DNA of 41,963 nt, taken from IMG/VR virus record IMGVR_UViG_2548876958_000014. One strand, written 5' to 3'. Positions 1-34,328 of the stretch are shown piece by piece. Each line of letters opens with the position of its first letter. Position 1 is the stretch's first letter. The notes below the pieces were generated by a model. That model saw only the letters and a list, made by a program, of their open reading frames with translations. It did no database searches and was not told the origin of the DNA. The position numbers and the translations under genes are program-made. Origin of the DNA: a virus. Its lineage: Duplodnaviria; Heunggongvirae; Uroviricota; Caudoviricetes.

Positions 1-1719
1 ATGATTTTTAGGGATAGCTTGAGAGTATTACCTTATGGTCGAGTAGATAATGATTTCTTCCAGATAGAAGAAAGACGTTCATGGAATGCAGGGCGATATT
101 ATTGGTCTAATAGAAGGATTTTTGGTTATATTGGAATTACTCAATCCAGTAATAAAGAGCTGAAAGATAAGTCGGGGAGAGAGGGATTCATAAGAAACCA
201 GGCTGCAAGAGAACTGAAAACTATTATATCTAATTTGTTAACTGAACTTGCTGATAGATTTTTTGGTTCACGTTCTGATGACCGTAAAGAGCTTTTAGAA
301 CAAGTTAAGCGTGAAAAAGAGTTAAGAAAATCTGCTCAACAACAAGCTCGAAAATCAACACAAAAAAGTTTTTCAGAAGCTTTGAAGAATCAGACACCAG
401 TTCTTGATGCTTCCTTGGAGGCTGTTAAAAGGCTGAAAACTAAGCTTGATAAAACTGATGGTTCGTTAGATTTAAACTATCTTAAAATTATAGACAGTGA
501 TCTTACAAACTTAGATGCGTTGCGCAGTGAAATTAAAACGCCTATCAAACCTCCAAAACTTGGAATGTATGAAGAGAAATATAGAGACTACAGAGATAAA
601 TTTAATGAGTTCTCTGCGTATATTCTACAAATGAAGTTAGCAATTAATAAACTTGATTCTGAATTAAATAAACTTGAGCCTTCATTGTCAGCGAAAAATC
701 ACCTTGAAAAAAATCAAGGTATTATTAATTCTAAACTAACTAAGTTTAATAACACGATAGAGGAGAAGATACATTCTCTTTTAAAAAAATGGGCCGATGA
801 AATAAAGGTTGATCGAAGTGATTATTATGCTAAAACTATATCAGTTGTTGATTCAATAGATAATGATTCACAAATTGAAAATGTGTTTAATTTGCTCGAT
901 AGTTTATATGTTGAGTCAGTTGATACCCTAACTTTCAAATATCAATCAATAATAAAAGGTCTCGATAGATTATTTGAAGGTATAAACTTAGATTCAGCAT
1001 TCTCATTATCTGAAGAAGAACGCTCATATTTTGAAGAAAAAGCTAAAAGTTTAAACGCGCTTGCACAGTTAGGTATTAGTGTTGAGATAATATCTCATGA
1101 ACTTGAAGAAATGGATTCTATGGTAACCAGAGGACTAAACTCTCTTCCTACTTCTGTAAAAGAACACCCTGGTTTTTCATTGGCGTTAAATGCTCACAGA
1201 TCGCTTACTCAACAAATACGTTTCTTATCACCTTTGAAAATATCAGGTTATCAATCCAGGCAGAGAATAACTGGAAAAAATATCATGGATTATGTCCTGA
1301 AGTTCTTTGGGGAGCGTTTCGAACGGCAACGAATAACTATTGAATTTAGTGAAGAGTTTAAGCAAATCGCAATAACAGATATACCATCAAGGATCTATCC
1401 TGTTTTTACTAATATTATCAACAATGCAATGTATTGGGTCAGTCTGTCAAATAATAGGCTCATAAAGATTGGTTTTGTGAATTCTTTGGTTATCATAGCA
1501 AATTCTGGTCCGGCAATTGATACCGATGATATCCCGCGACTATTTGAACTATTTTATAGCAAAAGAGCAAATGGACATGGGGTAGGTCTGTATCTATGTC
1601 GAGAAAACCTTGCTGTTGCACATCATAAAATATGGTATTCAGAACCTGATGAAGGCGATAACTATTTAATAAAAGATGGCGCTAATTTTGTGATCCAGTT
1701 CAATGGAGTGGAGTTCTAA
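1..1719 (+). CDS. Histidine-kinase-like protein (DHp H-box plus HATPase_c/GHKL ATPase domain), 5' end truncated by window edge
   Basis: ORF open from base 1; H-box-like ISHELEEMDSM; C-terminal N-box-like NIINNAMYW, G1-like DTDDIP, G2-like GHGVGLYLCRE; coiled-coil-rich region before it; AT-rich codon usage. Confidence 0.55.
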   Translation: MIFRDSLRVLPYGRVDNDFFQIEERRSWNAGRYYWSNRRIFGYIGITQSSNKELKDKSGREGFIRNQAARELKTIISNLLTELADRFFGSRSDDRKELLEQVKREKELRKSAQQQARKSTQKSFSEALKNQTPVLDASLEAVKRLKTKLDKTDGSLDLNYLKIIDSDLTNLDALRSEIKTPIKPPKLGMYEEKYRDYRDKFNEFSAYILQMKLAINKLDSELNKLEPSLSAKNHLEKNQGIINSKLTKFNNTIEEKIHSLLKKWADEIKVDRSDYYAKTISVVDSIDNDSQIENVFNLLDSLYVESVDTLTFKYQSIIKGLDRLFEGINLDSAFSLSEEERSYFEEKAKSLNALAQLGISVEIISHELEEMDSMVTRGLNSLPTSVKEHPGFSLALNAHRSLTQQIRFLSPLKISGYQSRQRITGKNIMDYVLKFFGERFERQRITIEFSEEFKQIAITDIPSRIYPVFTNIINNAMYWVSLSNNRLIKIGFVNSLVIIANSGPAIDTDDIPRLFELFYSKRANGHGVGLYLCRENLAVAHHKIWYSEPDEGDNYLIKDGANFVIQFNGVEF

Positions 1720-1720
1720 T

Positions 1721-3469
1721 ATGACAGTGGCAAATTATAATTCTCTTGTCCAGAAAACTTTCTGCGAAAATGTAATTCGTTCCGTTGTCATGATTGATGA
1801 CGATTTTCTGACGTATTCTGAATCAATCAGGGCGTTGAATAACGAAGTTGATTTAGACTACAACAAAATTGACTCATCTAAACGAGCCGCTACTCTTGAG
1901 AGCTTTTTTCAATCTAAAAATATGATTTGTGATGTTGACAATGGTTCTGTTAATTTCGATGTGGATCGGATTAGAAAATCAGATCTTATTATTGTAGATT
2001 ATCATCTTGATAATAATGCACCTGATAAAACACTTAAACTATTACAAGATTTGAAAGACTCCGATCATTTAAATATGATTGTAATATATACTAGAGAGAA
2101 TTTAGAAACGGTTTGGATGCAGATATCATCGACTCTCAAAGGTGCTCTGGATATCAACAGCTTGATCATTGACTACGATAATGAAGATGTCCAAAGTTAT
2201 TGGGAAGACGTTGTATTACCGAACTTAAATGATAATGGTAATAAAGCTCTCACAAGAGATGAAACAATAGCCTATATTAAAGACAGTAAGCCTTGTAGAA
2301 GAATTAAAAGATTAATACATGATGATGCTGTGTTGGAGGATCAAAAGGATAAAAACTTCATTGCAAAAATGATTGCAGAATATGCTGTGTCTAGAAATGC
2401 AATTATTTCTAGCAACACATCTGGCAATGTCATTCGGGGTGATGAAAGCGGAGTAAAATGGATTCAATGTGGTAATATCTTTGTCTCCCTATTTCATAAG
2501 GTTCAAGATGATCATGAAAACGATGGAGATAGAATTTGGCAAACTCTCAATGATTCTCTCATTGAATGGAAACCATCTTATTATCAGTTAATAAAATCTG
2601 AAATTCAGAATGCAATCGAAGCTGAGGCTTTATCTTTTGTAAATCATTTGGCTAACGATCATTACGGTCAAGCTGCGTGGTTAAATGAGATATTAAAATC
2701 AGACTCGCCTGATATTAGATGTAGAAATATTGACTTTGTATTTGGTAATTTATCAGAAGAGCTTTATCAAAGACTTAAAAATAATAATACGCTGGATGAA
2801 TTTATCAAAAGTGTTTTTGATAGCTATTCAAATGAATACGCTAACAGCGGAGTTGCTGCATTGCTCCAATATTGCTCTTCAAAAATGGATCTGCCATCAA
2901 ATAATGATACTTATCACGAAATGTATCATGCTTTAAATATGAATTTGTCTTCAAAGAATTTTGAAGATGGTCATATTTCTACTGGCACTATTTTCTTTGA
3001 TACAGAGTCGAACAAATGGTATTTATGTGTATCTGCGGCATGTGATTTGGTTCCTACTCAGGGTAACGACCCTCACCATGTAAGATTAAGTCCGCACAGG
3101 CTCATTAAAGTTCTGGAGCTTTTTAACGCCAGTCAGAGTAAAGCATTGCCATTTGCTGAACATTCGAAATATATATATGTAATGCATAAAAATCAAAGAA
3201 AATATCTCTCTATTTTCGAAGGGGATAAAACGCTTCCTGTTGTTGATTATATGGTGGTGTTGAATCATGGAACAACAGTTGATGGCGAAGAAAAAAATAT
3301 TATTTCTGCCGTGTTTTTAAGTAATATGGATGGCAACGTGCAAAATGTTCCTGTCCGACTCAAACTTAAATCTCAACTGAGAACTGGTTATGCAGAAAGA
3401 TATCAGGCTATAGCGTCTCAGTATAGCTCAAGGATTGGTGTGGATTATGTATCAATGATGCTACCATAA
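1721..3469 (+). CDS. Receiver (REC)-like N-terminal domain protein with ~450-aa C-terminal domain of unknown function (possible effector)
   Basis: ATG at 1721 two bases after upstream stop (ORF track gives 1703); N-terminal VVMIDDD acidic pair, DLIIVDYHL candidate phospho-acceptor Asp, NMIVIYT beta4 Thr; rest unrecognised. Confidence 0.45.
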   Translation: MTVANYNSLVQKTFCENVIRSVVMIDDDFLTYSESIRALNNEVDLDYNKIDSSKRAATLESFFQSKNMICDVDNGSVNFDVDRIRKSDLIIVDYHLDNNAPDKTLKLLQDLKDSDHLNMIVIYTRENLETVWMQISSTLKGALDINSLIIDYDNEDVQSYWEDVVLPNLNDNGNKALTRDETIAYIKDSKPCRRIKRLIHDDAVLEDQKDKNFIAKMIAEYAVSRNAIISSNTSGNVIRGDESGVKWIQCGNIFVSLFHKVQDDHENDGDRIWQTLNDSLIEWKPSYYQLIKSEIQNAIEAEALSFVNHLANDHYGQAAWLNEILKSDSPDIRCRNIDFVFGNLSEELYQRLKNNNTLDEFIKSVFDSYSNEYANSGVAALLQYCSSKMDLPSNNDTYHEMYHALNMNLSSKNFEDGHISTGTIFFDTESNKWYLCVSAACDLVPTQGNDPHHVRLSPHRLIKVLELFNASQSKALPFAEHSKYIYVMHKNQRKYLSIFEGDKTLPVVDYMVVLNHGTTVDGEEKNIISAVFLSNMDGNVQNVPVRLKLKSQLRTGYAERYQAIASQYSSRIGVDYVSMMLP

Positions 3470-3540: not shown

Positions 3541-3957
3541 TTATTTTTGTTTAAGTCTTCTAAGCTTCATGCATTCTAATGAGAATAATAATAGAGTTGT
3601 GCTGTATATAAAGCCAGAGTTAGTTAATAACTTTAAATTTAATGCTTCAGGATTTTCACTGAGAAAGTGAAAGGCATAAACTAAGTATACAGCTAAAGTA
3701 GCCGTTCCAATTGTTGGTCCAATATCGCCTTGATCATGAGGTTCAAGGTTTACATTGAACTTGAAGATTAGCCATTCAAATCCCCAAGTAAAAAAAACAA
3801 CTAATATCATGGCTGCGAATAATTTCGCGATGTTATCTGCTGATGGATTCATCAGAACAGATTGTTTCTGAAAAAATTCACAAAGTGAGAGTCCGAAAAA
3901 AATAAAAAAAAGTGGTCTGGAACTAAATTTTTCAAAAACTTTGAATAGGGTTTCCAT
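3541..3957 (-). CDS. Small hydrophobic (probable inner-membrane) protein
   Basis: 138-aa ORF with several hydrophobic stretches (LFFIFFGLSLCEF, AAMILVVFFTWGFEWLIF, TATLAVYLVYAFHF); AT-rich; convergent with upstream gene. Confidence 0.4.
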   Translation of the reverse strand: METLFKVFEKFSSRPLFFIFFGLSLCEFFQKQSVLMNPSADNIAKLFAAMILVVFFTWGFEWLIFKFNVNLEPHDQGDIGPTIGTATLAVYLVYAFHFLSENPEALNLKLLTNSGFIYSTTLLLFSLECMKLRRLKQK

Positions 3958-3995: not shown

Positions 3996-5225
3996 TTAGG
4001 CTACCAGAGCATTTGATCTTTGAGCTTGAACGTAATCACTCCACCATTGCATCAAACTCTGTCGCTCTATCAGATATTCTGCACGATTGTATGCTGCGAT
4101 AATTTCATCTTTTTTCGAGTGGGCAAGCGCTGCCTCAAGAACTTCAGCTCTGAATTTACCAGACTCCTCTGCCGCTGTTCGTGCAATAGAACGCATACCG
4201 TGAGCTACAAGCTCGCCTCCGAACCCCATTCGGATGATAGCTGCGTTGGCTGTTTGTTCATGCATATGATTAAGAGGCGCTTTTATGCTGGGGAAAACCC
4301 ATTCTCTATGCCCACTTATTGATTTCATTAATTCAAGGATGCGCAAAGCTTCTTTACTCAAAGGAACTTTGTGAAGCTTTTTCATTTTCATGAAATCAGC
4401 AGGAATGTTCCAAATGCTGTTGGTTGTATCAATATCAGACCACCTTGCGCGAACGGCTTCACCCGGACGAACCCATGTCAACAATTGCCATTCAATTAGC
4501 ATACGTGTTTCCAACCGGATTGACGCATTCGTCAAAGATTCCATAAACCTTGGCAATTCGCTTGGGGGAAGGGCAGGCATATTTTGCTTTTTTGGTTTAC
4601 TGAATCTTTGACCAAGGTTGTCAGCCGGGTTGAACTCAATAAGTTCTTCAGTAGCTGCCCACCGGAAGATTTCATTCAGACGTGAAATGATACGGCGTAG
4701 AGTTTCCAATACGCCTCGTTGCTCAATAGGATCAAGGTGTTGTTTTAAGAGCTTAGGTCGGATCTCATTGATAGGGACATTACCCAGACCGGGAAAGACA
4801 TTTCTCTCTAAGCTGCGCCAGATGTCTGCTGCATGGTCTTGTGAGATACCTGATGTCTTTACCTTCTCATCTAACCATTTCCGCGCTACGGCTTGGAGAG
4901 TGTGCTCAGTAGCACTCTTTAATGCCTTCGCCTTATCGTTGTTATGGATTTGGGGATCAACACCATTTGCCAGAAAGGAGAGATATTCATCACGTAAGGC
5001 TCTGGCTCTTGCAAGGGTAAGGTGAGGATATGTCCCAAGGCTCATTTTGGTTCTTTTCTTGCTCACTGGTACTGCATACCTGAAATACCAATTTTTCTTG
5101 CCTCCTTTCGCCAAAGGAGCGATTCGTAGAATCAGACCATCACCGTCAAACAAGTTGATTTCTTTATCGGCTGGCTTGGTGCTTTTGATTTCAGTGTCAG
5201 TGAGCTTCTTAGCGATTTTTGCCAT
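3996..5225 (-). CDS. Tyrosine recombinase / integrase, P4-IntA type
   Basis: ORF 3996..5267; likely start MAKIAKKLTDTEIKS at 5225; N-terminal arm-binding region typical of P4/CP4-57 IntA-like integrases; C-terminal catalytic region with HxxR-like AHGMRSIARTAA and Tyr in AYNRAEY; 165 bp from ssrA 3' repeat. Confidence 0.85.
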   Translation of the reverse strand: MAKIAKKLTDTEIKSTKPADKEINLFDGDGLILRIAPLAKGGKKNWYFRYAVPVSKKRTKMSLGTYPHLTLARARALRDEYLSFLANGVDPQIHNNDKAKALKSATEHTLQAVARKWLDEKVKTSGISQDHAADIWRSLERNVFPGLGNVPINEIRPKLLKQHLDPIEQRGVLETLRRIISRLNEIFRWAATEELIEFNPADNLGQRFSKPKKQNMPALPPSELPRFMESLTNASIRLETRMLIEWQLLTWVRPGEAVRARWSDIDTTNSIWNIPADFMKMKKLHKVPLSKEALRILELMKSISGHREWVFPSIKAPLNHMHEQTANAAIIRMGFGGELVAHGMRSIARTAAEESGKFRAEVLEAALAHSKKDEIIAAYNRAEYLIERQSLMQWWSDYVQAQRSNALVA

Positions 5226-5388
5226 TTTGGGACCCTCGGTTTTTGGACCCTTCTGAGTGGGTCCCATTCAGGGTGCCATAACTCGTAGTTCTCAGCAATT
5301 CTCACTGGACGACAATAGACGTAAAAAAGCCCGCAGAGCTTGTGCTGTGTGGGCTTAGTAGACTTCATTGAACTTCAAACAACTAAAA

Positions 5389-5430
5389 AGTGGTGCTGGC
5401 GGGAGTTGAACCCGCGTCCGAAATTCCTAC
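5389..5430. repeat. Direct repeat of the ssrA 3' end (att core; junction between prophage and neighbouring island)
   Basis: 5394..5430 is identical to 40912..40948 (37 bp); preceding TGGTG also matches but the ssrA GAG is missing, so it is a non-functional 3' fragment of tmRNA. Confidence 0.85.
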
Positions 5431-5624
5431 ATACCATTTTTATTATGGTAAAAACAGTAGATTATGTTTGAAAACAATGTGTTAGTGTTATTTTGTATTT
5501 GCTCGTCTTACGCGTTTTTAATGCTCTGCCGCCAAAGTGCCGCCATTACATCAAGTATCTAGAATAAAATTAGTTAATAAATTACAATTAATATGTTAAT
5601 TGTTCTTGCATTCATAAGTGGGAC

Positions 5625-7361
5625 GTGATGAAAGAAAAAAAATTCGTTAGTGAGCTTTTCCTTGAAAATGGGCAGTTTATTTTAGTCGGTTTGACAGGTC
5701 GAACTGGTTCTGGTTGCACAACAACAGCTAATATTCTTGAAAACGAAAAAACAGTCTTCCCTGATGTAAGTAAATTACAGGGGTTTTACAAGGGATTGGA
5801 TGTCCATCGTTATAATATAGTTAAAAAATTCGCAGAAAATCACTGGGAAAATTTTTACTCAATTAAGGTGAGTGACCTAATCTCAGCGTATCTTCTGATG
5901 TTAACAGTTGAGGAAGCTTCTGAATTCATTCTATCATCTAATAAATCTATCAGTAAAGAGCATTTAGATATTGTATTAACTTTTGGTGTATTCTCAGATA
6001 ATCTCATTTTGACAAGATTTAAAAATGTAATTGAGAATTTGCTTGATCATAATAGTGAATTGAAGCTTGATGAAAAAACGATTAATAAATTTATATCAAT
6101 TTTGAAGTTAGTTAGAAAATTTACTAAAGAATTCAAAGCTGAACTAAATGAGATAAACTCAAATTTATATGTTTCAGCCTATCAGTTAGCAGGTAAGTCA
6201 ATTAGACGTCGTGGGCGTATTGAAGTCGATTTTGAAGATAAAGAGTTTATGCCTAAATCTGTTTTTCATTTGCCGGAAACTATTAATAGGGTTATTAAAT
6301 TAATAAGAAAAAGCAAAAGAGATAACGCATTAATTGTCATAGATGCTATTAGAAATCCATATGAGGCAAAATTTTTTAAGGATAGATATTCTGCATTTCA
6401 TTTAATGTCAATAAATGCCCCAGATGAACATCGAACAAACTATTTGCGGAAACTACATAAGTTTTCAGAAAAGCAGATAGAGGAAATAGATTCTGTAGAG
6501 TCAGGTAAAGGTGATAACTCTTACAAACATCTCACCAATCCAAATGTAACTAAATGTATTGAACTATCAGATATACACATTTTTAACCCAAAAAATGAAT
6601 TTGATAATGACAATATTTTAAAAGCACAATTAGCGTGGTACATCGCACTGATGAAGCATCCTGGTCTGATAACACCTACTGCAATGGAAAGGGTTATGCA
6701 AGTTGCGTATACGGTAAAATTAAACTCTGGCTGTATATCTAGACAGGTGGGAGCTGTAGTAACTGATGGTGATAATTCAATAAAATCAGTTGGTTGGAAT
6801 GATGTTGCCAACGGTCAGATTCCTTGCTCTATGAGATCTCTAGATGGCCTAATGAACGATTTTGATGAAAAAACGTACAGTCATTATGAGAGAAATAATA
6901 GTTCTTTCAGAATTAAAGCTAATGAGAAACTCTTAAATTTTAGGGCGATAGATAAAACTGGTGATATTTATAGAGGCAGGAACTTATCTTATTGTTTTAA
7001 AGATATACATAATGATCTTGATAAAGAGAAAAAAGGTAATCAAGTTCATACACGTGCATTACATGCTGAGGAAAACGCATTTTTGCAACTTGCAAAATAT
7101 GGTGGTATTGGCGTTCTGGGGGGGAAGTTGTATACAACTGCCAGTCCCTGTGAGTTGTGTGCGAAAAAAGCTTATCAGTTAGGTATATCTGAAATTGTAT
7201 TTATTGATCCCTACCCAGGTATAGCTCAAGACCATATTATTAATATAGGTAGTAAGCCACCAAAGTTAATACAATTTAGAGGCGCAATTGGGAAGTCATA
7301 TCACCGACTTTATGAGCAAATTATCCCGATAAAAGATGAGTTAGAATATCTCCTTGAGTAG
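5625..7361 (+). CDS. Fusion protein: N-terminal P-loop nucleotide-kinase-like domain + C-terminal cytidine/dCMP deaminase zinc-binding domain (resembles anti-phage dCTP deaminase architecture)
   Basis: N-terminal GLTGRTGSGCTTTANIL (CoaE/dNK-like P-loop with Cys where Lys is expected); C-terminal HAEENAF and SPCELCAKKA (H-A-E ... P-C-x-x-C deaminase zinc motifs); AT-rich; sits between att repeat and P2-type int. Confidence 0.6.
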   Translation: MMKEKKFVSELFLENGQFILVGLTGRTGSGCTTTANILENEKTVFPDVSKLQGFYKGLDVHRYNIVKKFAENHWENFYSIKVSDLISAYLLMLTVEEASEFILSSNKSISKEHLDIVLTFGVFSDNLILTRFKNVIENLLDHNSELKLDEKTINKFISILKLVRKFTKEFKAELNEINSNLYVSAYQLAGKSIRRRGRIEVDFEDKEFMPKSVFHLPETINRVIKLIRKSKRDNALIVIDAIRNPYEAKFFKDRYSAFHLMSINAPDEHRTNYLRKLHKFSEKQIEEIDSVESGKGDNSYKHLTNPNVTKCIELSDIHIFNPKNEFDNDNILKAQLAWYIALMKHPGLITPTAMERVMQVAYTVKLNSGCISRQVGAVVTDGDNSIKSVGWNDVANGQIPCSMRSLDGLMNDFDEKTYSHYERNNSSFRIKANEKLLNFRAIDKTGDIYRGRNLSYCFKDIHNDLDKEKKGNQVHTRALHAEENAFLQLAKYGGIGVLGGKLYTTASPCELCAKKAYQLGISEIVFIDPYPGIAQDHIINIGSKPPKLIQFRGAIGKSYHRLYEQIIPIKDELEYLLE

Positions 7362-7741: not shown

Positions 7742-8758
7742 CTATCTTAAGTTGCATAAAGGGTTTTTAGTTACCGCATCTTCAAGGTGATCGGGCGAAA
7801 AGTGGGCGTAAATCATCGTCATTTTTATATCGGCATGGCCCAGAATATCGCGCAGCACCAGTATGTTTCCGCCATTCATCATAAAATGGCTGGCGAATGT
7901 ATGACGTAGCACGTGAGTGCATTGGCCCTCTGGCAGCTCGATGCCAGCTCGCTTTACTGCTCGTTCAAAGGCTTTTCTGCACGGGGTGAATAGCTTCCCT
8001 CTGTTCTTGGGGAGTTCGTCATACAGATCTTGAGATATCGGCACGGTGCGGTTTTTCTTACCCTTCGTCTTGGTATAAGTGATGCGGTATTTAGATAACT
8101 GATGGCCCTGCAGGTTTTCAGCTTCACTCCAGCGTGCGCCGGTGGCCAGGCATATTTTTGCAATCAAAAGCAGACTGGGGTTTTGAGAATCAGCGCAGGC
8201 ATCTAGCAGACGTTTAATTTCTTCCGAGGTCAGGAACGCCAGTTCCCCCTCAGCGATTTTAAATGTTGGCAGCCCGGCGAGAGGATTTGGTGCTGACCAG
8301 TGGCCTAGTTTTTTCAATGTGCCGAAAACCGATGATAGGTTACGTTGCTCAAGATTCACCGTGCGTGGTTTTACTGGCGACATTAGTGTGCCGTCTTCGT
8401 TACGAACGTCACCTTTTAACCGTGCTTCGCGGTATTTCGTAAAGTCACCGGCTGTCAGTTCTGAGGCGATGGGGTCGCCTAGACCATTACAGATAATTCT
8501 AAGTTTCGCCATGAGGCGCTTGGGGTCTGCGAGTGTCTGACCATACAGGGAATACCAAAGCTCAATTAATTCTGATAGGCGTCGCCGATCATCCTTTTCA
8601 CCCAACCACGGTTTTTTATTCACTTCTTCCATTGTGAAGCTTTCAAAAGCAATGGCTTCGCCTTTCGTAGCAAATTGCTTACGCACGCGCTTACCATTGC
8701 GTCCATTGGGATAGCACTCACACAACCATTTTCCGTTCGGCTGTTTTCTGATGGTCAT
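7742..8758 (-). CDS. int: P2/186-type tyrosine integrase
   Basis: 338 aa, matching the ~337-aa P2/186 integrases; conserved stretches CLATGARWSEAE, KYRITYTKTKGKKNRTVPIS, VLRHTFASHFMMNGGNILVL, MTMIYAHF; followed by repressor gene in same orientation. Confidence 0.9.
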   Translation of the reverse strand: MTIRKQPNGKWLCECYPNGRNGKRVRKQFATKGEAIAFESFTMEEVNKKPWLGEKDDRRRLSELIELWYSLYGQTLADPKRLMAKLRIICNGLGDPIASELTAGDFTKYREARLKGDVRNEDGTLMSPVKPRTVNLEQRNLSSVFGTLKKLGHWSAPNPLAGLPTFKIAEGELAFLTSEEIKRLLDACADSQNPSLLLIAKICLATGARWSEAENLQGHQLSKYRITYTKTKGKKNRTVPISQDLYDELPKNRGKLFTPCRKAFERAVKRAGIELPEGQCTHVLRHTFASHFMMNGGNILVLRDILGHADIKMTMIYAHFSPDHLEDAVTKNPLCNLR

Positions 8759-8759: not shown

Positions 8760-9392
8760 TCAAAGGCTCTTAATGATTTTCAGTGCGCGGCCTACTACCT
8801 CAATGTCATCTAGGCCACACTCAAACGATGAATCATCCTGATGCACTACTAATTTGTTTCCCGGAAGTCGAGTCAATTTAACAATGCTTTTTATCCCGTC
8901 AATATCGACTAACCACATACCATTTACTGGTGGTGTTTGGTTGCGATCTATTAAATAAGAATCACCAGAAGTAGTCACCAGCAGTAGGTTGCTTGAGTCT
9001 GAGGGGAGTATGCTGCTATCAATGATTGCTTTTCCAGCATCGACCAATAAACCACCTTTGAGAGTCGCCTTGTCAATTTCAGGAGATACTAGTTCAGAAA
9101 GAGGTACAACCTTGCTGGAGTTCACGGAGTTGATATTTTTTTTAGGTTCAATGTTTGGACCTGGCTCCCCCTGTCCGGTGGTTAGCCACAGTAAAGAAAC
9201 TCCTGTTTCCAAGGCGCACTGAATCACCCACTCTGCAGGAAAACTATCTCTTAAGTATCTGTTTGCCATGGTGCTTTTTGATGCGCCTAAGTGATCGCAA
9301 AGTTGCTGTCTGGACTTGAAATCATAGGCTGCCATTAGTCTATGGATAGCCTCTCTTCCCCCTGTATTCTCTCCAACCTTTATCTGTATCAT
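8760..9392 (-). CDS. cI: Phage CI-type immunity repressor (186-like)
   Basis: Sits between int and a divergent early operon; N-terminal HTH-like region (SRQQLCDHLGASKSTMANRYLR) and C-terminal domain as in 186 CI; start may be internal. Confidence 0.7.
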   Translation of the reverse strand: MIQIKVGENTGGREAIHRLMAAYDFKSRQQLCDHLGASKSTMANRYLRDSFPAEWVIQCALETGVSLLWLTTGQGEPGPNIEPKKNINSVNSSKVVPLSELVSPEIDKATLKGGLLVDAGKAIIDSSILPSDSSNLLLVTTSGDSYLIDRNQTPPVNGMWLVDIDGIKSIVKLTRLPGNKLVVHQDDSSFECGLDDIEVVGRALKIIKSL

Positions 9393-9511: not shown

Positions 9512-9754
9512 ATGAGCACTGATATTTCAATTCGTGTACCAAAAGAGATGGCTACGCCTGCAGAGTTCGCGGAATGGGAAGGTATCTCCCGCGGCTCTGT
9601 GTATCAAAAAATTCATCATGGTCAGCTTGCTAAATACATGGTCAAGAAAGAAAAAAACAAAGGCCGCGTAAGCCTGCGTTATTTAATGTACAAAACCGAT
9701 CAGGTCCGTGAATCCCTCGGTCATTCCAACTTCCGCGTCATTGTTGGTAAGTAA
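9512..9754 (+). CDS. Apl/Cox-like excisionase and lytic-switch regulator
   Basis: 80-aa first gene of the operon divergent from cI; HTH-like AEFAEWEGISRGSVYQKIHHGQL; position as in 186 apl / P2 cox. Confidence 0.6.
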   Translation: MSTDISIRVPKEMATPAEFAEWEGISRGSVYQKIHHGQLAKYMVKKEKNKGRVSLRYLMYKTDQVRESLGHSNFRVIVGK

Positions 9755-15347: not shown

Positions 15348-15392
15348 GCGTAGATCATGCAGGTGCATGAAAACCACTACATAAAGCGGGCA

Positions 15393-15411
15393 GGCGTGGC
15401 GGGGATACGAG
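15393..15411. other. Candidate cos (cohesive end) site
   Basis: GGCGTGGCGGGGATACGAG resembles my recollection of the 19-nt P2/186 cohesive ends (GGCG(A/T)GGCGGGGAAAGCA-); recollection and position both uncertain. Confidence 0.25.
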
Positions 15412-15497
15412 CGCGCGCTTAGCCATGAATCTGTGGACTTGATGGTGAAGCTAAGGTAATTTGTATCAAAAAAAGCAGTACAATAGGGATATATAGA

Positions 15498-16577
15498 GTG
15501 GCGTTATCAGATGCGTTAATTACAGTAAATCAAGCAGAACGGGGCGGTGAAAACGCGTTGAGAGGCTTTTCATATCAAGCCTCTTGGGGGATAAATTATT
15601 TACTTGAAAAACAAAAAGAAAAGGAGAAATATTTATTTCTATTTGAATATCATGACGATATTCTTGTATTGAATTCATCTGTTTCTCCGACTAGTGCTGA
15701 GTTTATCCAAGTTAAAACAAAAAAAGATGGTAAATGGACACTCGCAGCAATAGTGAACGCAACAAAAGCTAAACCTAAATCATTTGTTGCAAAACTATAT
15801 GACCATTTCTATCAATTCGTTGGTCACGAAATTTATATGGTTCTGTTATCGAATGCTGGATTCGATTTCTTAAATGATAATAACGAAAAAGGTAGTGATC
15901 TTAATAATGAGCATAAGGAAATTATAATTAGTAAGGTTCAAGAGCAGCTAAATACTAAAAAAGAAGTTCCTCTTGATAAAATAAAATTTAAAACATCTGA
16001 TCTTAGTTTGTTAGATCCTAACTCACATTTATACGGGAAAGTTGCAGTTTTTTTGAATTCTTACTTTGGGGATGATCATGGTATTAATTCAACAGCATTC
16101 ACTAAATTATTAATCAATAAGTGTAATGAGAAGGTTAGTGTTGCTTCTAGTGATATCAAAACTTTTGAAGATTTAGTACTAAAGAAAGGTATATCTTCAG
16201 AATTTGTAACTGATTTATTATCTGGACTCATTGCAAGCATAAAAATAACGCCAAAATGGGAACAGGTTTGTATGTTGCTTGGTACTTTCTCAGATCCTTA
16301 TGAGGGGATTAAATTACAATCAGTTTTTACACGCATATCAATAAAAGTGCTCAATGTCAATTCAATATACTATCTTTATTTTCTGGAATTTCAATCGGCT
16401 CTAAAGAGTATAGAGCATTATCGTGAGATACCTGTTCGAGACCTCTTCTTTACACTCGAAAAAACAATTGCAGCGGGGGACGGGGATTTCTCTTTATTAA
16501 ATCAAGAAGAGAAATTTATGATTGCTATATATGCAATTATAAAGTTGACTTTTGAGGATGTTTCTTATGAAGAATAA
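15498..16577 (+). CDS. Candidate defence effector: nuclease-like protein (possible PD-(D/E)xK / Cap4-like fold; LmuA-like)
   Basis: 359 aa, GTG start; N-terminal GFSYQ and acidic cluster EYHDDILV followed by EFIQVKTKK (D...(E/Q)xK-like); AT-rich; stop overlaps downstream start. Confidence 0.5.
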   Translation: MALSDALITVNQAERGGENALRGFSYQASWGINYLLEKQKEKEKYLFLFEYHDDILVLNSSVSPTSAEFIQVKTKKDGKWTLAAIVNATKAKPKSFVAKLYDHFYQFVGHEIYMVLLSNAGFDFLNDNNEKGSDLNNEHKEIIISKVQEQLNTKKEVPLDKIKFKTSDLSLLDPNSHLYGKVAVFLNSYFGDDHGINSTAFTKLLINKCNEKVSVASSDIKTFEDLVLKKGISSEFVTDLLSGLIASIKITPKWEQVCMLLGTFSDPYEGIKLQSVFTRISIKVLNVNSIYYLYFLEFQSALKSIEHYREIPVRDLFFTLEKTIAAGDGDFSLLNQEEKFMIAIYAIIKLTFEDVSYEE

Positions 16578-18225
16578 CGTTAAATTTAAAAATATAAAAA
16601 TACTCTCATTAAGAGACAGAAAAGCTTTTTCTTATGAGTTTTCAGAAGGGGTTAACTTCATATATGGTACAAATGATGTTGGTAAATCAAGCCTGATTAA
16701 AAGTCTTTATTACACATTAGGTGGAGATTTAAGGCTTGATGATGCTTGGAAATCAGATGATATAGTTACACTGGTGGAAATTAATAACGGGGAAAGTGAT
16801 TTTATTTTTTTGCGTTATAAAAAGATTATTGGTGTCTTTGATTTGAAGAATGATGATCTAGTCGTGTATAACACGATTTCATCATTAGCATCTCGTGTTT
16901 CAAATATATTTGGTTTTAAACTGGAATTACATAATAAATATACGGGTGCTACGACTCAGGCAAACCCTGCTTGTTTGTTTGCCCCATTCTTTATTGATCA
17001 GGATGAAGGATGGAAAGCGGTGATAAATTCTTTCGAAAACATGAGTATGTACTCAGAATGGCAAAAAAACATTCTTTACTATCACTCTGGAATTAAGCCA
17101 AAGGAATATTACACAGTTCAAGGGAAAATCAAAGAAGTTAAAGTTAAAATTTCAGAGTTAGATGGTTTTGTTAAGGTTCTAAAAAGAAGCAAAAGTAAGA
17201 TTGATGAATCTTTTGGTGTGGTTTTATTTGATGTTGATTTGGATTTTTATAAATCAAAGTTAGAACGTATATTAAATGAATATTCTAATTTGAATTTAGT
17301 TCAGACAGAATATAGATTGAATCTTTTGAGGTTATATTCTAGGAAGAATTTCCTTGAGAGTGAACTCAAAGAGATAACTGCGATTATTGATAATGAATTT
17401 GAGATTTCGAATTTTCGAGATGATAATGTTGCTTATTCAGTAAATGAATATAATTATATAAACCATAGAGATGAAATGCTCAAAAACATTGCTGTTCTTG
17501 CAGATGAGAAAAGCAAGATTGAGGAAAATATTCCTAAATTGAATCAAAAGCTAGAAGAGTCAAGGGCTGCTTCAGAGGCGTTGCAGGCGCTGATTTTAGA
17601 AACTCAATCGGAAATAACGCTTCATGATGTTATTAAATCTGCTGCATACCATGAAATTGAATCTACTTTTGTTTCACAGTTAGATGAGTTATTCGTTGAG
17701 ATTGGTCGAAAAGAAGGCGAGTTGACAGAATTACAAGAAGAATTAGAAGTATACAATGATAAGAAAAGAACTGTTAAAATAAATGACTGTTTCAAAGAGT
17801 ATTTCGCTAAAGCTCTTAAAGAGCTTGGTGTCGAAAATACAAAGGTAGGTGGCCTTAGTAGTTATAATAATATTACTAAGGGTAAGACTGGTAGTCGAGG
17901 TCCTCGAGGTATATTTGCATTTCACTACGCGCTACTTAGTGTTATGAAAAGCAACTCTTCAGTTGAGAATATGCCTATAGTAATAGACTCTCCAAAGCAA
18001 CAAGATTTGGATCCAGAGCATACGCATAAGCTTATAAAACTATGCTTGGATGGGTTTTCCCTTACAAATCAGATTATTATTGGCACTGTTGGTTATGAGA
18101 GTTTCATGGATGGTTTTAATAGCATCAAACTTGAAAATAAATATCATCTTTTAAATGATGAACATTATGATAATGTTTATTCTCAATTAATGCCATTGTT
18201 TGAACGGGTGATACTTTCAAGATGA
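16552..18225 (+). CDS. SMC/Rad50-like ABC ATPase with central coiled coil (LmuB-like)
   Basis: Walker A GTNDVGKSS; long heptad-rich middle; C-terminal PIVIDSPKQQDLD (Walker B / D-loop-like); possible starts 16552/16558/16567 overlap upstream gene. Confidence 0.55.
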   Translation: MRMFLMKNNVKFKNIKILSLRDRKAFSYEFSEGVNFIYGTNDVGKSSLIKSLYYTLGGDLRLDDAWKSDDIVTLVEINNGESDFIFLRYKKIIGVFDLKNDDLVVYNTISSLASRVSNIFGFKLELHNKYTGATTQANPACLFAPFFIDQDEGWKAVINSFENMSMYSEWQKNILYYHSGIKPKEYYTVQGKIKEVKVKISELDGFVKVLKRSKSKIDESFGVVLFDVDLDFYKSKLERILNEYSNLNLVQTEYRLNLLRLYSRKNFLESELKEITAIIDNEFEISNFRDDNVAYSVNEYNYINHRDEMLKNIAVLADEKSKIEENIPKLNQKLEESRAASEALQALILETQSEITLHDVIKSAAYHEIESTFVSQLDELFVEIGRKEGELTELQEELEVYNDKKRTVKINDCFKEYFAKALKELGVENTKVGGLSSYNNITKGKTGSRGPRGIFAFHYALLSVMKSNSSVENMPIVIDSPKQQDLDPEHTHKLIKLCLDGFSLTNQIIIGTVGYESFMDGFNSIKLENKYHLLNDEHYDNVYSQLMPLFERVILSR

Positions 18226-18265: not shown

Positions 18266-19300
18266 TTAAATTTTTAGTTCGTAGGTTGAAAAATTTATAA
18301 TTCTATCGTTTAACCAATTATTTATTTCTAGAAACATTTTTTGTAGAGGCAGTAGCTCATTTCGTACAAATACTGTGCTTGCCTTTTCGATATCCCCAAA
18401 CCCCCCGACATTATTAGGCATTATCCCCATCATTTGTGGCGGCACACGATGCGCCGCCATCATGTCGTCCCGGCTCACGTTCTTGATATTCAGGAACTCA
18501 TCCTTCGCCGCCACTTCTGACAACGGGATAATCTGAAGCCCGTCCTTTTTACCGTTAGGCGAGTACATAAACAGGTTACGGAAGTTACCAGGACCTTTGG
18601 CGCTTTTCATCGCATTGCGGAGGTTGTTCACATCCTCCTGGTTCTGCGCAGCATCGGTCATGTACATGATGAAGCCTGCATGACTGCCGTTAATGTAATA
18701 CTTGCGGCGGAACAGCGTGGCGGACTCGTTGAGCAGAGCTGACGGAATGGCAGAAAGATAACCGGGCAGGCCGTAGATCTCCTGGTTGATGTCCGGTTCC
18801 ATCAGATGAAAAATGCTGCCTTTCGTGAACTGATACGGCTGGGTTGTCATACCGTATTGCACAAACCAGTAGGTATCCAGGTCTAACCCGCGTCGGGTGT
18901 ATTTTGCCAGCGCAGGCTCAAGGGCGATAACTTCACCGAATCGGTTCGTGCGTTTCTCCAGGTAGGCGTTACCAAATACCAGATAGTCCTGCACAAAACG
19001 CGAAAAAGCCTGCTGGCTGAGCAGCGGATGAGGGATATAGGTACTGGTCAGAATGTTGCACTTTACTGCAATCGGGGAACTGTGATGCACGGCAGCGCGG
19101 AAGGTGCGCGCCAGTCCGTCAAAGCTGACGGGCGGCTCATACCAACGGTCCATCTGTACGCATTCCACATAGTCCAGCAGTTCTCGGCGATCCAGAACAG
19201 GAACGGGATCGCCGAAGCTGAATGCTTCGGCTGTAGTCTGGCTTTTAAGCTGGATCTGTTTCGTCGCCGCAGCGCGGTTCTTCTTACTCTTTCCCATCAA
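18266..19300 (-). CDS. Q: Portal protein gpQ
   Basis: 344 aa (the length of P2 Q); precedes terminase ATPase gene on same strand, as in P2. Confidence 0.85.
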   Translation of the reverse strand: MMGKSKKNRAAATKQIQLKSQTTAEAFSFGDPVPVLDRRELLDYVECVQMDRWYEPPVSFDGLARTFRAAVHHSSPIAVKCNILTSTYIPHPLLSQQAFSRFVQDYLVFGNAYLEKRTNRFGEVIALEPALAKYTRRGLDLDTYWFVQYGMTTQPYQFTKGSIFHLMEPDINQEIYGLPGYLSAIPSALLNESATLFRRKYYINGSHAGFIMYMTDAAQNQEDVNNLRNAMKSAKGPGNFRNLFMYSPNGKKDGLQIIPLSEVAAKDEFLNIKNVSRDDMMAAHRVPPQMMGIMPNNVGGFGDIEKASTVFVRNELLPLQKMFLEINNWLNDRIINFSTYELKI

Positions 19301-21063
19301 AAAATCTCCACAATATTGCTGGTATTGGCGGATTCGCCCTGCAGCGGTTCGTTAAACAGTGCGTGCATTGTTGCCCAGGCCAGATCGGCGTGGCTGGCTT
19401 CTTCGCTGCGGCTGGCTTCATAGGTCGGGCGGTTGCCGCTGGCGGTGGTTGCGCGACGGATTGCCATGAATGACTGCGCAATGTCGGTGTGCCCGGCGTC
19501 AAACTCCAGACGGCGGTGGCTGATAATGTCGTAGGCCTTGAGTACCAGGGCGTTTTTAACATTGGGGTTGTAGACAAACTCCCGGACGGCAGGAAAGAAC
19601 GCTTTCACGTTCTCATAAACCCCGTGACCAACGCCGGTTGAGTCGATACCGATATAGGTCACGTTGTACTGTTCGGTGAGTTTTTTGATGGCGTCAGCCT
19701 GGGCGCGGAAGTCCATCCCGCGCCACTGGTGACGCTCAAGAATGCGGAACTTACCACCCGGCACGGCTGGCGGAGCCACCACCACGCATCCGGCACTGTC
19801 GCCGTTCTGCGTACCTTTTGCCGGGTCATAACCGATCCACACTTCGCGCCAGCCAAACGGGCGCAGGGCCAGTGCATGAAAGTCGGTCCAGACTTCCCAG
19901 CTGTCCACCATGCACGCCTGCAGTTCGCTGAGCGGGAACACGGACGCGAGATCGTCCACGAACTCGCACATCAGCAGGTTCTGGTATTCGTCCGGGCTGT
20001 ACTCCAAGCGTAGCTGGTCGAGGTCGAACAGGTTACAGCCGCCGCGCACCGCATCTTCCACGGTGACTATCTGGCGGTATTGCCCGTCTGCGCACAGCAG
20101 GCCGGGGGCCAGATTGCTGTGGGACAGGTCGATGTCCACCTTGTCAGCTTTGTTGCGTCCACGGTTGAACAGCGCACCGGACCAGAACGGATAAGCACTG
20201 TGGGTCAGGCTGGATGGCGTGGAAAAATAGGTTTGTCGCCATTTTTTGTGAATAGCCATCCCGGAAGCCACTTTGCGCAGCTCCTGGAATTTCGGTATCC
20301 AGAAATATTCATCCAGATACAGGTTGCCGTGATAACTCTGGGCCGTGCGGGCATTGGTGCCGAGGAAGTAAAGCGTAGCTCCGTTAGGAAGCACCATCGG
20401 ATCGCCTTTTAGCTCCACCTCGACTTCTTTGGCGAAGTCGATGATGTATTGTTTAAAGACGTGGGCCTGAGCCTTACTGGCAGAAAGGAAAATCTGGTTA
20501 CGTCCGGTAAGCAGGGCGTCAATCAGGGCTTCACGGGCAAAATAGAAGGTCGCGCCGATCTGGCGTGACTTCAGCAGGTTGCGGATGCGGTTGGTTTTTC
20601 CGGCTTCCCACCAGTGGCGCTGGTAGTTGAACATGGAGGAATGGAAGATTTCTTCCAGCTTCTCAATCTGCTCATCGGTGAAAACATTCTTTTCCGGCTG
20701 ACGGCGTGGGCCTTTATTGCGGTTGGCGACGTTAGGGTTTAAGTCGGCTTCGTTGCCGCCATTGTTAAACTTGCCGATCCGCGCGTGGCGCTCAGACTGG
20801 CGCGCCAGCAGGTCAATCTCTTTGAAATCTTTCCCTTCTTTGTGCTCCTTCATAATGAGCTGGCAGTAGCGTGCGGCGGTGGTGAGCTGCATCTGATCCA
20901 GCGGCCCATAGTCACCCCACTTGTCGCGTTTTTTCCAGCTGTGAACGGTTGCAACTTTCTCGCCCAGCATTTCAGCAATGCGGGCTACGCGGTATCCCTG
21001 AAAGTACAGCAGCATGGCCTGCCGACGGGGATCGAGATCTGCGGGTGTCAGTGTGGTGTTCAT
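19297..21063 (-). CDS. P: Terminase large (ATPase) subunit gpP
   Basis: 588 aa; N-terminal HTH-like region, Walker-A-like RQIGATFYF context, nuclease C-terminal region; overlaps Q start by 4 bp. Confidence 0.9.
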   Translation of the reverse strand: MNTTLTPADLDPRRQAMLLYFQGYRVARIAEMLGEKVATVHSWKKRDKWGDYGPLDQMQLTTAARYCQLIMKEHKEGKDFKEIDLLARQSERHARIGKFNNGGNEADLNPNVANRNKGPRRQPEKNVFTDEQIEKLEEIFHSSMFNYQRHWWEAGKTNRIRNLLKSRQIGATFYFAREALIDALLTGRNQIFLSASKAQAHVFKQYIIDFAKEVEVELKGDPMVLPNGATLYFLGTNARTAQSYHGNLYLDEYFWIPKFQELRKVASGMAIHKKWRQTYFSTPSSLTHSAYPFWSGALFNRGRNKADKVDIDLSHSNLAPGLLCADGQYRQIVTVEDAVRGGCNLFDLDQLRLEYSPDEYQNLLMCEFVDDLASVFPLSELQACMVDSWEVWTDFHALALRPFGWREVWIGYDPAKGTQNGDSAGCVVVAPPAVPGGKFRILERHQWRGMDFRAQADAIKKLTEQYNVTYIGIDSTGVGHGVYENVKAFFPAVREFVYNPNVKNALVLKAYDIISHRRLEFDAGHTDIAQSFMAIRRATTASGNRPTYEASRSEEASHADLAWATMHALFNEPLQGESANTSNIVEIF

Positions 21064-21204
21064 GGCACAAACCTACAGCCTTGAATGACGGCTTTCCCCG
21101 CCTGCGGTTTGTGTGGTTGTCGGTACAAATACCGCGCATTGTTTCACTGCCCCATCACCGCAACCATAAGGCTCCAGTAAGTTTTTTCTAACGGAGCACG
21201 GCTC

Positions 21205-22038
21205 ATGACAGTGAAAGCAAAGCGTTTTCGCATCGGGGTGGAAGGTGCCACCACCGACGGACGCGAAATCCAGCGTGAATGGCTGGAACAGATGGCAGCC
21301 AGCTACAACCCGGCGGTGTATACCGCGCTGATTAACCTTGAGCACATCAAGTCTTATCTGCCGGACAGCACCTTTAACCGCTACGGCAAGGTGACGGCGC
21401 TGTTTGCTGAAGAAATCACGGAAGGTCCGCTGGCAGGCAAGATGGCGCTGTATGCCGACGTTGAGCCAACGGAGTCCCTGGTGGAGCTGGTGAAAAAAGG
21501 CCAGAAATTATTCACCTCTATGGAAGTCAGCCCGAAGTTCGCTGATACGGGCAAAGCCTACCTGGTCGGCCTGGCTGCCACTGATGACCCTGCCAGTCTG
21601 GGCACTGAAATGCTGACATTCAGCGCCAGTGCAGCCCATAACCCACTGGCAAACCGCAAGCAGAATCCTGCCAATCTCTTTACCGCTGCAGAGGAAACGG
21701 TGATCGAACTGGAAGAAATCCAGGACGACAAACCGTCCCTGTTTGCCCGTGTCACGGCGCTGTTTACCAAAAAAGATCAGTCCGATGACGCCCGGTTCTC
21801 TGATGTGCATAAGGCCGTGGAGCTGGTCGCCACTGAGCAGCAGAACCTGAGCGCACGCACCGAAAAATCCCTGTCTGAGCAGGAAGAACGCCTGTCTGAG
21901 CTGGAGACTGCCCTGCAGGCACAGCAAACCGCCTTTAACGAACTGGTGGACAAGCTGAGTCATGAAGACAGCCGCAAGGACTACCGCCAGCGTGCAACAG
22001 GCGGTAACGCCCCCGCTGACACTCTGACCAATTGCTGA
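21205..22038 (+). CDS. O: Capsid scaffolding protein gpO
   Basis: 277 aa; divergent from P; precedes major capsid gene. Confidence 0.8.
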   Translation: MTVKAKRFRIGVEGATTDGREIQREWLEQMAASYNPAVYTALINLEHIKSYLPDSTFNRYGKVTALFAEEITEGPLAGKMALYADVEPTESLVELVKKGQKLFTSMEVSPKFADTGKAYLVGLAATDDPASLGTEMLTFSASAAHNPLANRKQNPANLFTAAEETVIELEEIQDDKPSLFARVTALFTKKDQSDDARFSDVHKAVELVATEQQNLSARTEKSLSEQEERLSELETALQAQQTAFNELVDKLSHEDSRKDYRQRATGGNAPADTLTNC

Positions 22039-22054
22039 TGGAGCACAAAACCCG

Positions 22055-23113
22055 ATGAAGAAGAATACCCGCTTTGCTTTTAACGCTTACCTGCAGCAGC
22101 TGGCGCGTCTGAACGGTGTGGCAGTTGAAGAACTGTCCAGCAAGTTCACCGTGGAGCCGTCTGTGCAGCAGACGCTGGAAGACCAGATCCAGCAATCCGC
22201 CGCTTTCCTGACGCTGATTAACGTCACGCCAGTGACCGAGCAGTCTGGTCAGCTGCTGGGGTTGGGTGTTGGCAGCACCATTGCCGGAACCACTGATACC
22301 ACCGCAAAAGAGCGTGAGCCTGTCGATCCGACGCTGATGGTCGATGTGGAATACAAATGCGAGCAGACCAACTTTGACACGGTGCTGACCTACGCGAAGC
22401 TGGACCTGTGGGCGAAGTTTCAGGATTTCCAGGTGCGTATTCGTGACGCGATCGTGAAACGTCAGGCACTGGACCGCATCATGATCGGCTTTAACGGCGT
22501 GAAGCGTGCGAAAACCTCAAACCGTAGCGAAAACCCGCTGCTGCAGGATGTGAATAAAGGCTGGCTGCAGAAAATCCGTGAGGATGCACCGGATCACGTC
22601 ATGGGCAGCACCACCACGGGCGGTGAAACCACACCGAGTGCGGTGAAAGTCGGAAAAGGTGGCGAATATGCCAACCTGGACGCCGTGGTGATGGATGCCG
22701 TCAATGAGCTTATCGACGTGGTCTACCAGGACGATGACGATCTGGTGGTGATTTGCGGTCGTGAACTGTTGTCTGACAAGTATTTCCCGCTGGTCAACAA
22801 AGAGCAGGAGAACAGTGAAAAACTGGCTGCAGATATGATCATCAGCCAGAAACGCATGGGTGGCCTGCAGGCCGTGCGTGCGCCGTTCTTCCCGCCGAAT
22901 GCGCTGCTGATCACCCGTCTGGATAACCTGTCCATCTACTGGCAGGAGGATACCCGCCGCCGTTCAGTTATCGACAACCCGAAACGTGACCGGATTGAAA
23001 ACTTTGAATCCGTTAACGAAGCCTATGTGGTTGAGGACTACCGCTGCGCCGCACTGGTGGAAAACATCCAGATTGGCGACTTCAGCGCCGCCGCAGCAGA
23101 AACCGGAGCGTAA
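22055..23113 (+). CDS. N: Major capsid protein gpN
   Basis: 352 aa; N-terminus RFAFNAYLQQLARLNG ... KFTVEPSVQQTL resembles P2 gpN. Confidence 0.85.
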   Translation: MKKNTRFAFNAYLQQLARLNGVAVEELSSKFTVEPSVQQTLEDQIQQSAAFLTLINVTPVTEQSGQLLGLGVGSTIAGTTDTTAKEREPVDPTLMVDVEYKCEQTNFDTVLTYAKLDLWAKFQDFQVRIRDAIVKRQALDRIMIGFNGVKRAKTSNRSENPLLQDVNKGWLQKIREDAPDHVMGSTTTGGETTPSAVKVGKGGEYANLDAVVMDAVNELIDVVYQDDDDLVVICGRELLSDKYFPLVNKEQENSEKLAADMIISQKRMGGLQAVRAPFFPPNALLITRLDNLSIYWQEDTRRRSVIDNPKRDRIENFESVNEAYVVEDYRCAALVENIQIGDFSAAAAETGA

Positions 23114-23116
23114 TCC

Positions 23117-23767
23117 ATGAGCCTGAGTCCCGCACGGCAGCATCGCCTGCGCGTTCAGGCTGAACAGGCCGCCCGCGAGGGCGGCAGCGTTCGCCACGCG
23201 TCGGGCTATGACCTGATGCTGCTGCAACTGGCGGAAGACCGACGCCGTCTCAAGGGTGTTCAGTCCACGGTCAAAAAAGCGGAAATCAAAGTGGAGCTGC
23301 TGCCGAAGTACGCCGCCTGGGCGGAGGGTGTTCTGGCTGCCGGAGGCGCTCAACAGGATGACGTGCTGATGTACGTGATGCTGTGGCGTATTGATGCCGG
23401 AGATTATGCCGGGGCGCTGGAGATCGGGCGTCATGCCCTGCGTCATGGCTGGGTGATGCCGCTGGGTAACCGCAACGTGCAGACCGTGCTGGCAGAGGAA
23501 ATGGCAGACGCGGCACAGAGCGCAATGCTTGCCACTACCGGCTTTGATGCCGATCTGTTGCTGCAGACGCTGGAGCTGACAGACGGTCTGGATATGCCGG
23601 ACCAGTCACGGGCGCGTCTGCATAAAGCGATTGGCGCTGTCCTGAGTGAAAGTAATCCGGCTTCCGCCCTTAATCATCTCAACCATGCGTTACAGCTCGA
23701 TCCCCGCTGTGGCGTGAAAAAAGACAAACAGCAGCTGGAGCGCAGACTGCGCAATGACAGCCGCTGA
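23117..23767 (+). CDS. M: Terminase small (endonuclease) subunit gpM
   Basis: 216 aa immediately after N, as in P2. Confidence 0.8.
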   Translation: MSLSPARQHRLRVQAEQAAREGGSVRHASGYDLMLLQLAEDRRRLKGVQSTVKKAEIKVELLPKYAAWAEGVLAAGGAQQDDVLMYVMLWRIDAGDYAGALEIGRHALRHGWVMPLGNRNVQTVLAEEMADAAQSAMLATTGFDADLLLQTLELTDGLDMPDQSRARLHKAIGAVLSESNPASALNHLNHALQLDPRCGVKKDKQQLERRLRNDSR

Positions 23768-24530: not shown

Positions 24531-24533
24531 ATT

Positions 24534-25242: not shown

Positions 25243-25243
25243 A

Positions 25244-34319: not shown

Positions 34320-34328
34320 GGGGACAAC

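Follow-up and report, generated by a model that had tools for sequence, protein, structure and literature searches.

A P2-like prophage between ssrA and its displaced 3′ end, next to an integrase island remnant in Escherichia coli

Among tDNA integration targets the tmRNA gene is the most strongly enriched, and Islander, which deals with tandem arrays as a matter of routine, lists 125 of them; in a tandem array of the Islander type each member has an integrase and a tDNA fragment of its own (PMC4383910). In E. coli the tmRNA locus counts as defence hotspot #9; its occupants are prophages of several groups, P4-like satellites, integrative mobilisable elements and transposons (PMC10121019). P2-family prophages that integrate into ssrA (Fels-2, SopE-phi and SpaX), and tandem ssrA islands, were catalogued by Williams 2003, as cited in Table 1 of PMC10107115 and in PMC10121019; according to the table in PMC10107115, P2-type prophages at ssrA normally leave an intact fragment. 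The island CP4-57 of K-12, whose P4-type integrase lies directly downstream of ssrA, is 22 kb long and excisable, with a distal 14-nt repeat (psaA) and the excision activator AlpA.

The window analysed here, by which we mean the whole stretch of 41,963 nt (IMG/VR record IMGVR_UViG_2548876958_000014), presents a related arrangement. It is E. coli chromosome: smpB and ssrA were matched in 5,426 of 5,426 complete E. coli genomes. Tandem elements at ssrA are textbook knowledge, and a phage beside an island at this gene is already known and common, with dozens of public genomes showing it; only a deletion of 3 nt in the displaced end of ssrA is out of the ordinary.

We propose, with a probability of roughly 0.9 for the account as a whole, that the repeat found in the window is the displaced end of ssrA, left by the later insertion of an Elveevirus beside an older island remnant. 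The phage tyrosine integrase would have recombined a 45-bp attP segment, equal to the last 45 nt of ssrA, with ssrA itself, and the phage copy of these 45 nt together with a phage-borne terminator would now complete the gene. The original ssrA end would thereby have been displaced by 35.5 kb, at a time when an older island, bearing a P4/CP4-57-type integrase, already adjoined it, and about 5.4 kb of this island would survive (the integrase, one ORF of unknown function, and a histidine-kinase-like/receiver-like pair). Both junctions, the attP match and three population states are observed directly.

The prophage and its ends at ssrA

The intact ssrA gene lies at 40904..41266 on the minus strand and encodes the tag ANDENYALAA; the ARAGORN call and the Rfam match (RF00023, 295.8 bits, full length) agree with the first-pass annotation that the tmRNA gene is complete. 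The chromosomal flank on this side contains smpB (41481..41963, minus strand). The displaced ssrA 3′ end, oriented as the gene is, occupies 5391..5432 (minus strand). Compared with alignments of relatives, it is the 45-nt ssrA 3′ end (TGGTGGAGC...ACAT) without 3 nt, reading CGCCAG---CACCA, which leaves 42 bp. It includes an exact repeat of 38 bp (5395-5432 equal to 40911-40948), with a match in none of 100 shuffles. An ungapped alignment of the repeat covers 43 bp (5390-5432) with one mismatch; the T-to-A substitution that this alignment suggests is ruled out by the relatives, which show a 3-nt deletion instead. The repeat had earlier been placed at 5389..5430, and while its length of 42 bp stands, the true site is 2 nt further to the right.

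The segment 5391..5432 is both the integrase-side junction of the prophage and the old junction of ssrA with the island. The Ogr-side junction is the 45-nt core inside ssrA (40904..40948, minus strand), as given by the attP of phage Cartapus (OV696611; Peduoviridae, Elveevirus) and by the junctions of relatives. The attP of this free phage matches both prophage junctions: it reads ...GGGGCTACGCTTTCACGTAACCCCTTGATTTATT, then 45 bp identical to the ssrA 3′ end, then ACCATTTTTA..., with the core at Cartapus 23420-23463, the left arm corresponding to window positions 40870-40903 and the right arm to 5433-5550. With core and both arms matching, the earlier claim that ssrA and the copy of its 3′ end bracket a P2-like prophage is borne out. 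The right arm is a conserved arm of the phage attP (5433..5550, about 118 bp) that aligns with three other prophage junctions as well; beyond it lies variable cargo, and matches in relatives stop at 5546-5554.

In the working ssrA, the 45-nt core is of phage origin in its 3′ portion at least. The intrinsic terminator for ssrA is likewise phage-borne (40868..40895, minus strand; a 12-bp stem followed by a T run; -19.8 kcal/mol, z -4.75), the same sequence being found in the Cartapus attP. Downstream of the displaced ssrA end, a terminator scan found a terminator-like hairpin borne by the island (5327..5341, minus strand), which folds weakly (z -0.88).

Unique phage DNA runs from 5433 to 40903 (35,471 bp), and the prophage ends are 5432 and 40904. 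Both ends of the att-to-att prophage record OK490403 (35,561 bp) coincide exactly with these boundaries. The interval between the two ssrA copies is a complete 35.5-kb prophage of the genus Elveevirus (P2-like, Peduoviridae).

Two observations concern ssrA ends in other strains. In WP3-S18-ESBL-09 (NZ_AP022036.1, L001 11391-11567), the RefSeq/PGAP annotation places a partial ‘ssrA tmRNA’ of 177 nt on the displaced fragment; we reject this extent, the ssrA-derived part being 45 nt only and the remainder phage att arm. In the island-only strain CAU16175 (L005 7489-7510) and further O111/O26-type strains, the working ssrA is 3 nt shorter at its very end, with ...CTCCA before CTTTTT as against the usual ...CTCCACCA, so that the CCA terminus is incompletely encoded and post-transcriptional addition would be needed.

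The early region of the prophage begins with an integrase of the P2 family (7742..8758, minus strand, 338 aa; Int_N and Phage_integrase domains), 93% identical at full length to the Cartapus integrase and about 40% identical to the integrases of other P2-like phages (pro483 and HQ103). Next to it are a CI-type repressor of 210 aa (8760..9392, minus strand), whose identity to Cartapus CI of 52% suggests that the prophage is probably heteroimmune to Cartapus, and a Cox/Apl-like excisionase-repressor of 80 aa (9512..9754, plus strand; phrog_6912 and phrog_575), identical to the Cartapus protein. Further early genes are those for CII, Dam and the replication protein gpA. The cos site (15361..15419) is a 98% match to the annotated Cartapus cos, bases 1-59. 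Morphogenesis and lysis genes of P2 type, starting with portal Q and ending with Ogr, form a module at 18266..40271 that is collinear with Cartapus and comprises the Q-P-O-N-M-L head genes, lysis, baseplate and tail genes, then D and Ogr. This gene order (int-CI-cox...A, cos, Q-P-O-N-M-L...D-ogr) and the high nucleotide identity to Cartapus are those of an Elveevirus of the Peduoviridae. Between ogr and attP there is one more phage ORF, of 160 aa (40298..40780, minus strand), 99% identical to CARTA_32 of Cartapus; it matches phrog_2561 (‘DNA ligase’), its C-terminus is weakly BRCT/NAD-ligase-like, and PADLOC gives PDC-S48 at 1.8e-07.

The morphogenesis module includes an invertible tail-fibre segment (30541-33004). 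Its inverted repeats, 30541-30567 and 32356-32382 (27 nt, 85% complementary), enclose alternative fibre C-termini and assembly genes, and a Gin-like serine invertase at 32432-33004 is 99% identical to its Cartapus counterpart.

Two slots of the prophage hold defence cargo; earlier work already lists both, the unusual att-int slot among them, as P2 defence hotspots (PMC13586616, PMC9122126). The att-int slot carries an anti-phage dCTP deaminase of 578 aa (5625..7361, plus strand), detected by PADLOC (dCTPase, 1.1e-145) and by the NCBIfam equivalog NF041025 at 425 bits, above the cutoff of 400; its activity is a prediction. A dCTP deaminase in the same slot was found in 20 complete genomes. The hotspot between gpA and gpQ carries Lamassu in adjacent genes (15498..18225, plus strand), the Cap4-type nuclease LmuA (Pfam Cap4_nuclease) and the SMC-like ATPase LmuB, with PADLOC values of 4e-143 and 6.1e-253. 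The content of the att-int slot (window 5433-7741) varies: where this prophage has the deaminase, Cartapus has a RES-domain gene (L004 23583-24788), and WP3-S18-ESBL-09 (L001 11552-12583) and C2 (L002 11548-13923) have unrelated hypothetical proteins. That Cartapus carries its RES-domain gene there suggests that the slot travels with the phage genome.

The island remnant and the order of arrival

Left of the displaced copy is a remnant, about 5.4 kb long, of a P4/CP4-57-type integrase island. Its tyrosine integrase (3996..5267, minus strand) has the domains Arm-DNA-bind_3, Phage_int_M and Phage_integrase, and its start is likely the ATG at 5225 (409 aa, within an ORF of 423 aa). The ORF starts about 165 bp past the displaced ssrA end; the ssrA-intA spacing in K-12 is 203 bp. 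The NCBIfam model PRK09692 assigns the protein to the IntA family (440.4 bits, cutoff 434), and an alignment with K-12 IntA that begins at ORF residue 15 shows 48% identity at full length. The first-pass annotation had described an IntA-type integrase just beyond the repeat, oriented as in ssrA-intA; position and orientation are correct, but ‘IntA-type’ applies at the family level only, as 48% identity does not make it an orthologue of IntA.

Besides the integrase, the island retains an ORF of 138 aa (3541..3957, minus strand) that has no Pfam match and hits phrog_6556, of unknown function, at 1e-70. The island's only cargo is a pair of genes (window 1-3469): a histidine-kinase-like ATPase of 572 aa (1..1719, plus strand; HEF_HK and HATPase_c, Pfam PF19191 and PF02518), annotated ‘ATP-binding protein’ in relatives, and a Response_reg_2 protein of 588 aa, or 582 aa from the PGAP start (1703..3469, plus strand). 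The C-terminal 400 aa of the latter are conserved, with invariant residues that include W253, N412, G428 and C447. A distant homologue lies beside a C5 DNA methylase (L010-L012). PADLOC gave no match to the histidine-kinase-like gene and has no model for the family. The HEF_HK and Response_reg_2 families come from a computational paper only, Bellieny-Rabelo 2021 (PMC8011034); Kaur et al. 2020 as their origin is a wrong attribution. A defence function of the island pair is a computational prediction only, and the earlier statement that the array concentrates defence cargo holds for the phage, through the PADLOC and NCBIfam matches to dCTP deaminase and Lamassu, and for the island as that prediction.

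Apart from ssrA and the displaced copy, we found nothing in the window, positions 1-5390 included, that resembles the ssrA 3′ end (blastn-short, word size 7), and in four relatives (L001, L002, L005 and L006) no ssrA fragment lies within 6 kb to the left of the island; both searches gave chance matches of 8-13 nt only. These four relatives are 99.3-99.6% identical across the island; the left flank of the study strain itself lies beyond the window. A third ssrA repeat further left, which had been suggested as a check, is therefore not found in these regions, and its absence had been named as grounds for a single contiguous element; that there are two elements is nevertheless supported by the population evidence given below. 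In the Islander sense this is no tandem array: two integrases are present, and the outer island has no ssrA fragment of its own in the window (1-5390) or in the four relatives.

Left of the island the four relatives have a truncated alpha-amylase pseudogene (ygaQ'), usually with IS3 at the junction, and then glaH-lhgO-gabD. The same interval in K-12 and in VG888-46E9, a strain with the phage alone, contains ypjA, pinH', ypjB/C, ileY and a full-length ygaQ. On the simplest reading, one deletion would have taken the distal end of the island together with the interval from ypjA to ygaQ. IS3 is found exactly at the ygaQ'/island junction in most relatives (L006 716/1981, L001 4615/5880) and is missing from it in CAU16175 (L005 1979/1980), so IS3 may have inserted in an event separate from the deletion that stranded the island.

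A search for the att core of the island in the variant island of TUM9812 (L008; junction 91% identical) found it broken by IS too, with no distal repeat. Pfam recognises no excisionase-like gene among the surviving island genes. The features of an excisable island like CP4-57 are thus not seen, as there is no distal repeat and the other small ORF (3541-3957) has no Pfam match. The island would accordingly seem to be a stranded remnant, presumably unable to excise. A full att pair with Int and Cox belongs to the phage only, not to the island, and from its gene content the phage should still be able to excise by means of Int and Cox. It had been supposed that such an array can be mobilised or lost as a unit; with a full att pair, Int and Cox on the phage only, and no distal repeat for the island in the window or the four relatives, site-specific recombination would not move or remove the array as a whole.

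The elements were found apart as well as together. A query made of the synthetic junction of island and intact ssrA (coverage ≥80%) identified the island-only state in 969 of the 5,426 complete E. coli genomes; in L006 island sequence begins straight after the complete ssrA end, with CCACCA adjoining CTTTTTAGTTG. The phage-only state is represented by VG888-46E9, where the same phage (99.98% over 11.4 kb, with both the deaminase and the Lamassu nuclease gene) is flanked by ssrA on one side and by a displaced 45-bp copy on the other; this copy abuts native DNA beside ypjA, the same DNA that in K-12 flanks the distal repeat of CP4-57. The tandem state, recognised by the junction of island, fragment and phage arm, occurs in at least 63 genomes, whose prophages differ in cargo. 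The wild-type junction of island and ssrA end is present in 1,416 of 5,426 genomes (~26%).

Genomes lacking one of the elements, a comparison that the first-pass annotation had recommended, thus do exist, and because island-only, phage-only and tandem genomes are all found, we take phage and island to be two independent integrative elements at ssrA. Their adjacency in the tandem genomes would also fit one contiguous composite element with two integrases, in which the internal repeat is incidental, but this idea is already refuted by the existence of both single states, and the cos-ended Cartapus genome corresponds to the phage part only, with its attP exactly at the repeat; we give it next to no credence. 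The two integrations at ssrA that had been claimed, with the phage between ssrA and an older island, are supported by the three population states and the Cartapus attP, the order of events being our reading of the comparisons that follow.

Between strains the island is 99.2-99.6% identical, a divergence like that of the core genome, and the phage is 99.98% identical between its two contexts. These values, together with the island junction in 1,416 genomes, make it parsimonious to infer an old, fixed island followed by recent arrivals of phages. The reversed order, with the phage first into ssrA and the island later into the displaced fragment as a secondary attB, would give the same final arrangement, and the displaced copy does keep the extreme 3′ end used by CP4-57-type integrases (the K-12 repeat is the last 14 nt). 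This order is nonetheless quite improbable: the island sits directly on intact ssrA in the 969 island-only genomes, with an identical junction, and has diverged as the core genome has; it is decayed, fused to the truncated ygaQ, with no distal repeat found; and the neighbouring prophages differ in cargo from strain to strain, the same phage also being found without the island. The decay of the island, the varied prophage cargo and the phage without an island point instead to repeated recent arrivals of phages beside a fixed island, the order that we prefer.

The three-nucleotide deletion in the displaced copy

The 3 nt missing from the displaced copy are U357 and two adjacent nucleotides in the 3′ strand of the acceptor stem. 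The junction in its deleted version was found in 0 of the 5,426 complete E. coli genomes; as the control query with the wild-type junction matched its 1,416 genomes, this negative result is not a filter artefact. As the deletion is confined to the study strain, the simplest explanation is a neutral change in a fragment without function, or a sequencing error.

Onodera et al. (PMC10107115) showed that the loss of this one nucleotide, U357, is enough to stop trans-translation and to shift rescue to ArfA. Judged by the sequence, precise excision of the prophage would restore an ssrA with a defective 3′ end, or else the heterology between the two copies would hinder excision. A prophage that is locked in, or addictive, can be imagined on this basis: the deletion would either block excision or leave cured cells deficient in tmRNA, and would favour keeping the phage with its defence genes. 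The phage copy is at present the only intact ssrA 3′ end, and the nucleotides lost include the very one whose deletion inactivates tmRNA. Such a role is possible, though we lean against it: the deletion is private, the crossover may lie anywhere within the 45 bp, and E. coli with arfA tolerates the loss of ssrA. Slightly less probable is the broader proposition that an intact, probably inducible P2-like prophage acts as sole source of the functional tmRNA 3′ end, each precise excision switching the cell from trans-translation to ArfA unless the heterology blocks excision. If it were true, a phenomenon of P4-type cryptic islands, the ‘rescue switching’ of CP4-57, would reach a live P2-type phage too, and a tmRNA end supplied by a prophage would be a retention device for defence cargo.

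The private deletion offers a cheap experimental way to ask if tmRNA can be inactivated when a P2-type prophage is lost. The main value of the analysis is in annotation: the prophage ends at 5432 and 40904, the dCTP deaminase beside att is a phage gene, and the integrase past the repeat is part of a dead island rather than of a second mobile element. Since public genomes offer empty, single and double states, the locus illustrates repeated traffic at ssrA cleanly. No general principle is at stake.

Comparison with known systems

The prophage is like Cartapus in gene order, in the 45-bp attP core and in both att arms, and about 27 kb of the 33.4 kb of Cartapus align in HSPs of 95-97% nucleotide identity. 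The backbone genes, Int through Ogr, have their full length and follow the order of the cos-ended Cartapus record, most proteins being 85-100% identical. The two phages differ in the tail-fibre C-terminus and assembly proteins, which are divergent here (28-58%), in the Cartapus ORF hyp14, which is missing from the prophage, and in CI, which shows only 52% identity where Int has 93% and Cox 100%. They differ also in both cargo slots: the att-int slot has dCTP deaminase here and a RES-domain protein in Cartapus, and the gpA-gpQ slot has Lamassu here and DUF4145 with hypothetical proteins in Cartapus.

Like Fels-2, SopE-phi and SpaX, the prophage has a P2-type integrase and an attP with the ssrA 3′ end, has rebuilt an intact ssrA, and has a displaced fragment at its far end; here as there, several types of element use the ssrA locus. 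The displaced fragment in those prophages is intact (CGCCAGCTCCACCA), whereas here it lacks the 3 nt, and the neighbour here is a remnant island, not a second complete element. The prophage also fits the Islander/TIGER definition of an element integrated in a tDNA (PMC4383910), which calls for a tDNA and a co-oriented 3′ fragment with the integrase within the interval: ssrA at 40904-41266 and the fragment at 5391-5432 are both on the minus strand, and Int (7742-8758) lies between them.

The island, for its part, resembles CP4-57 of K-12 in having a P4-type integrase directly downstream of ssrA, in the same orientation and with the same domain architecture, at 48% identity. It differs from the 22-kb excisable island of K-12 in size, at about 5.4 kb, and in carrying other cargo. 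The CP4-57 repeat in K-12 is the last 14 nt of ssrA, whereas the phage in the window uses 45 nt; by this analogy, the integrase types of phage and island probably cross over at different sublocations of ssrA.
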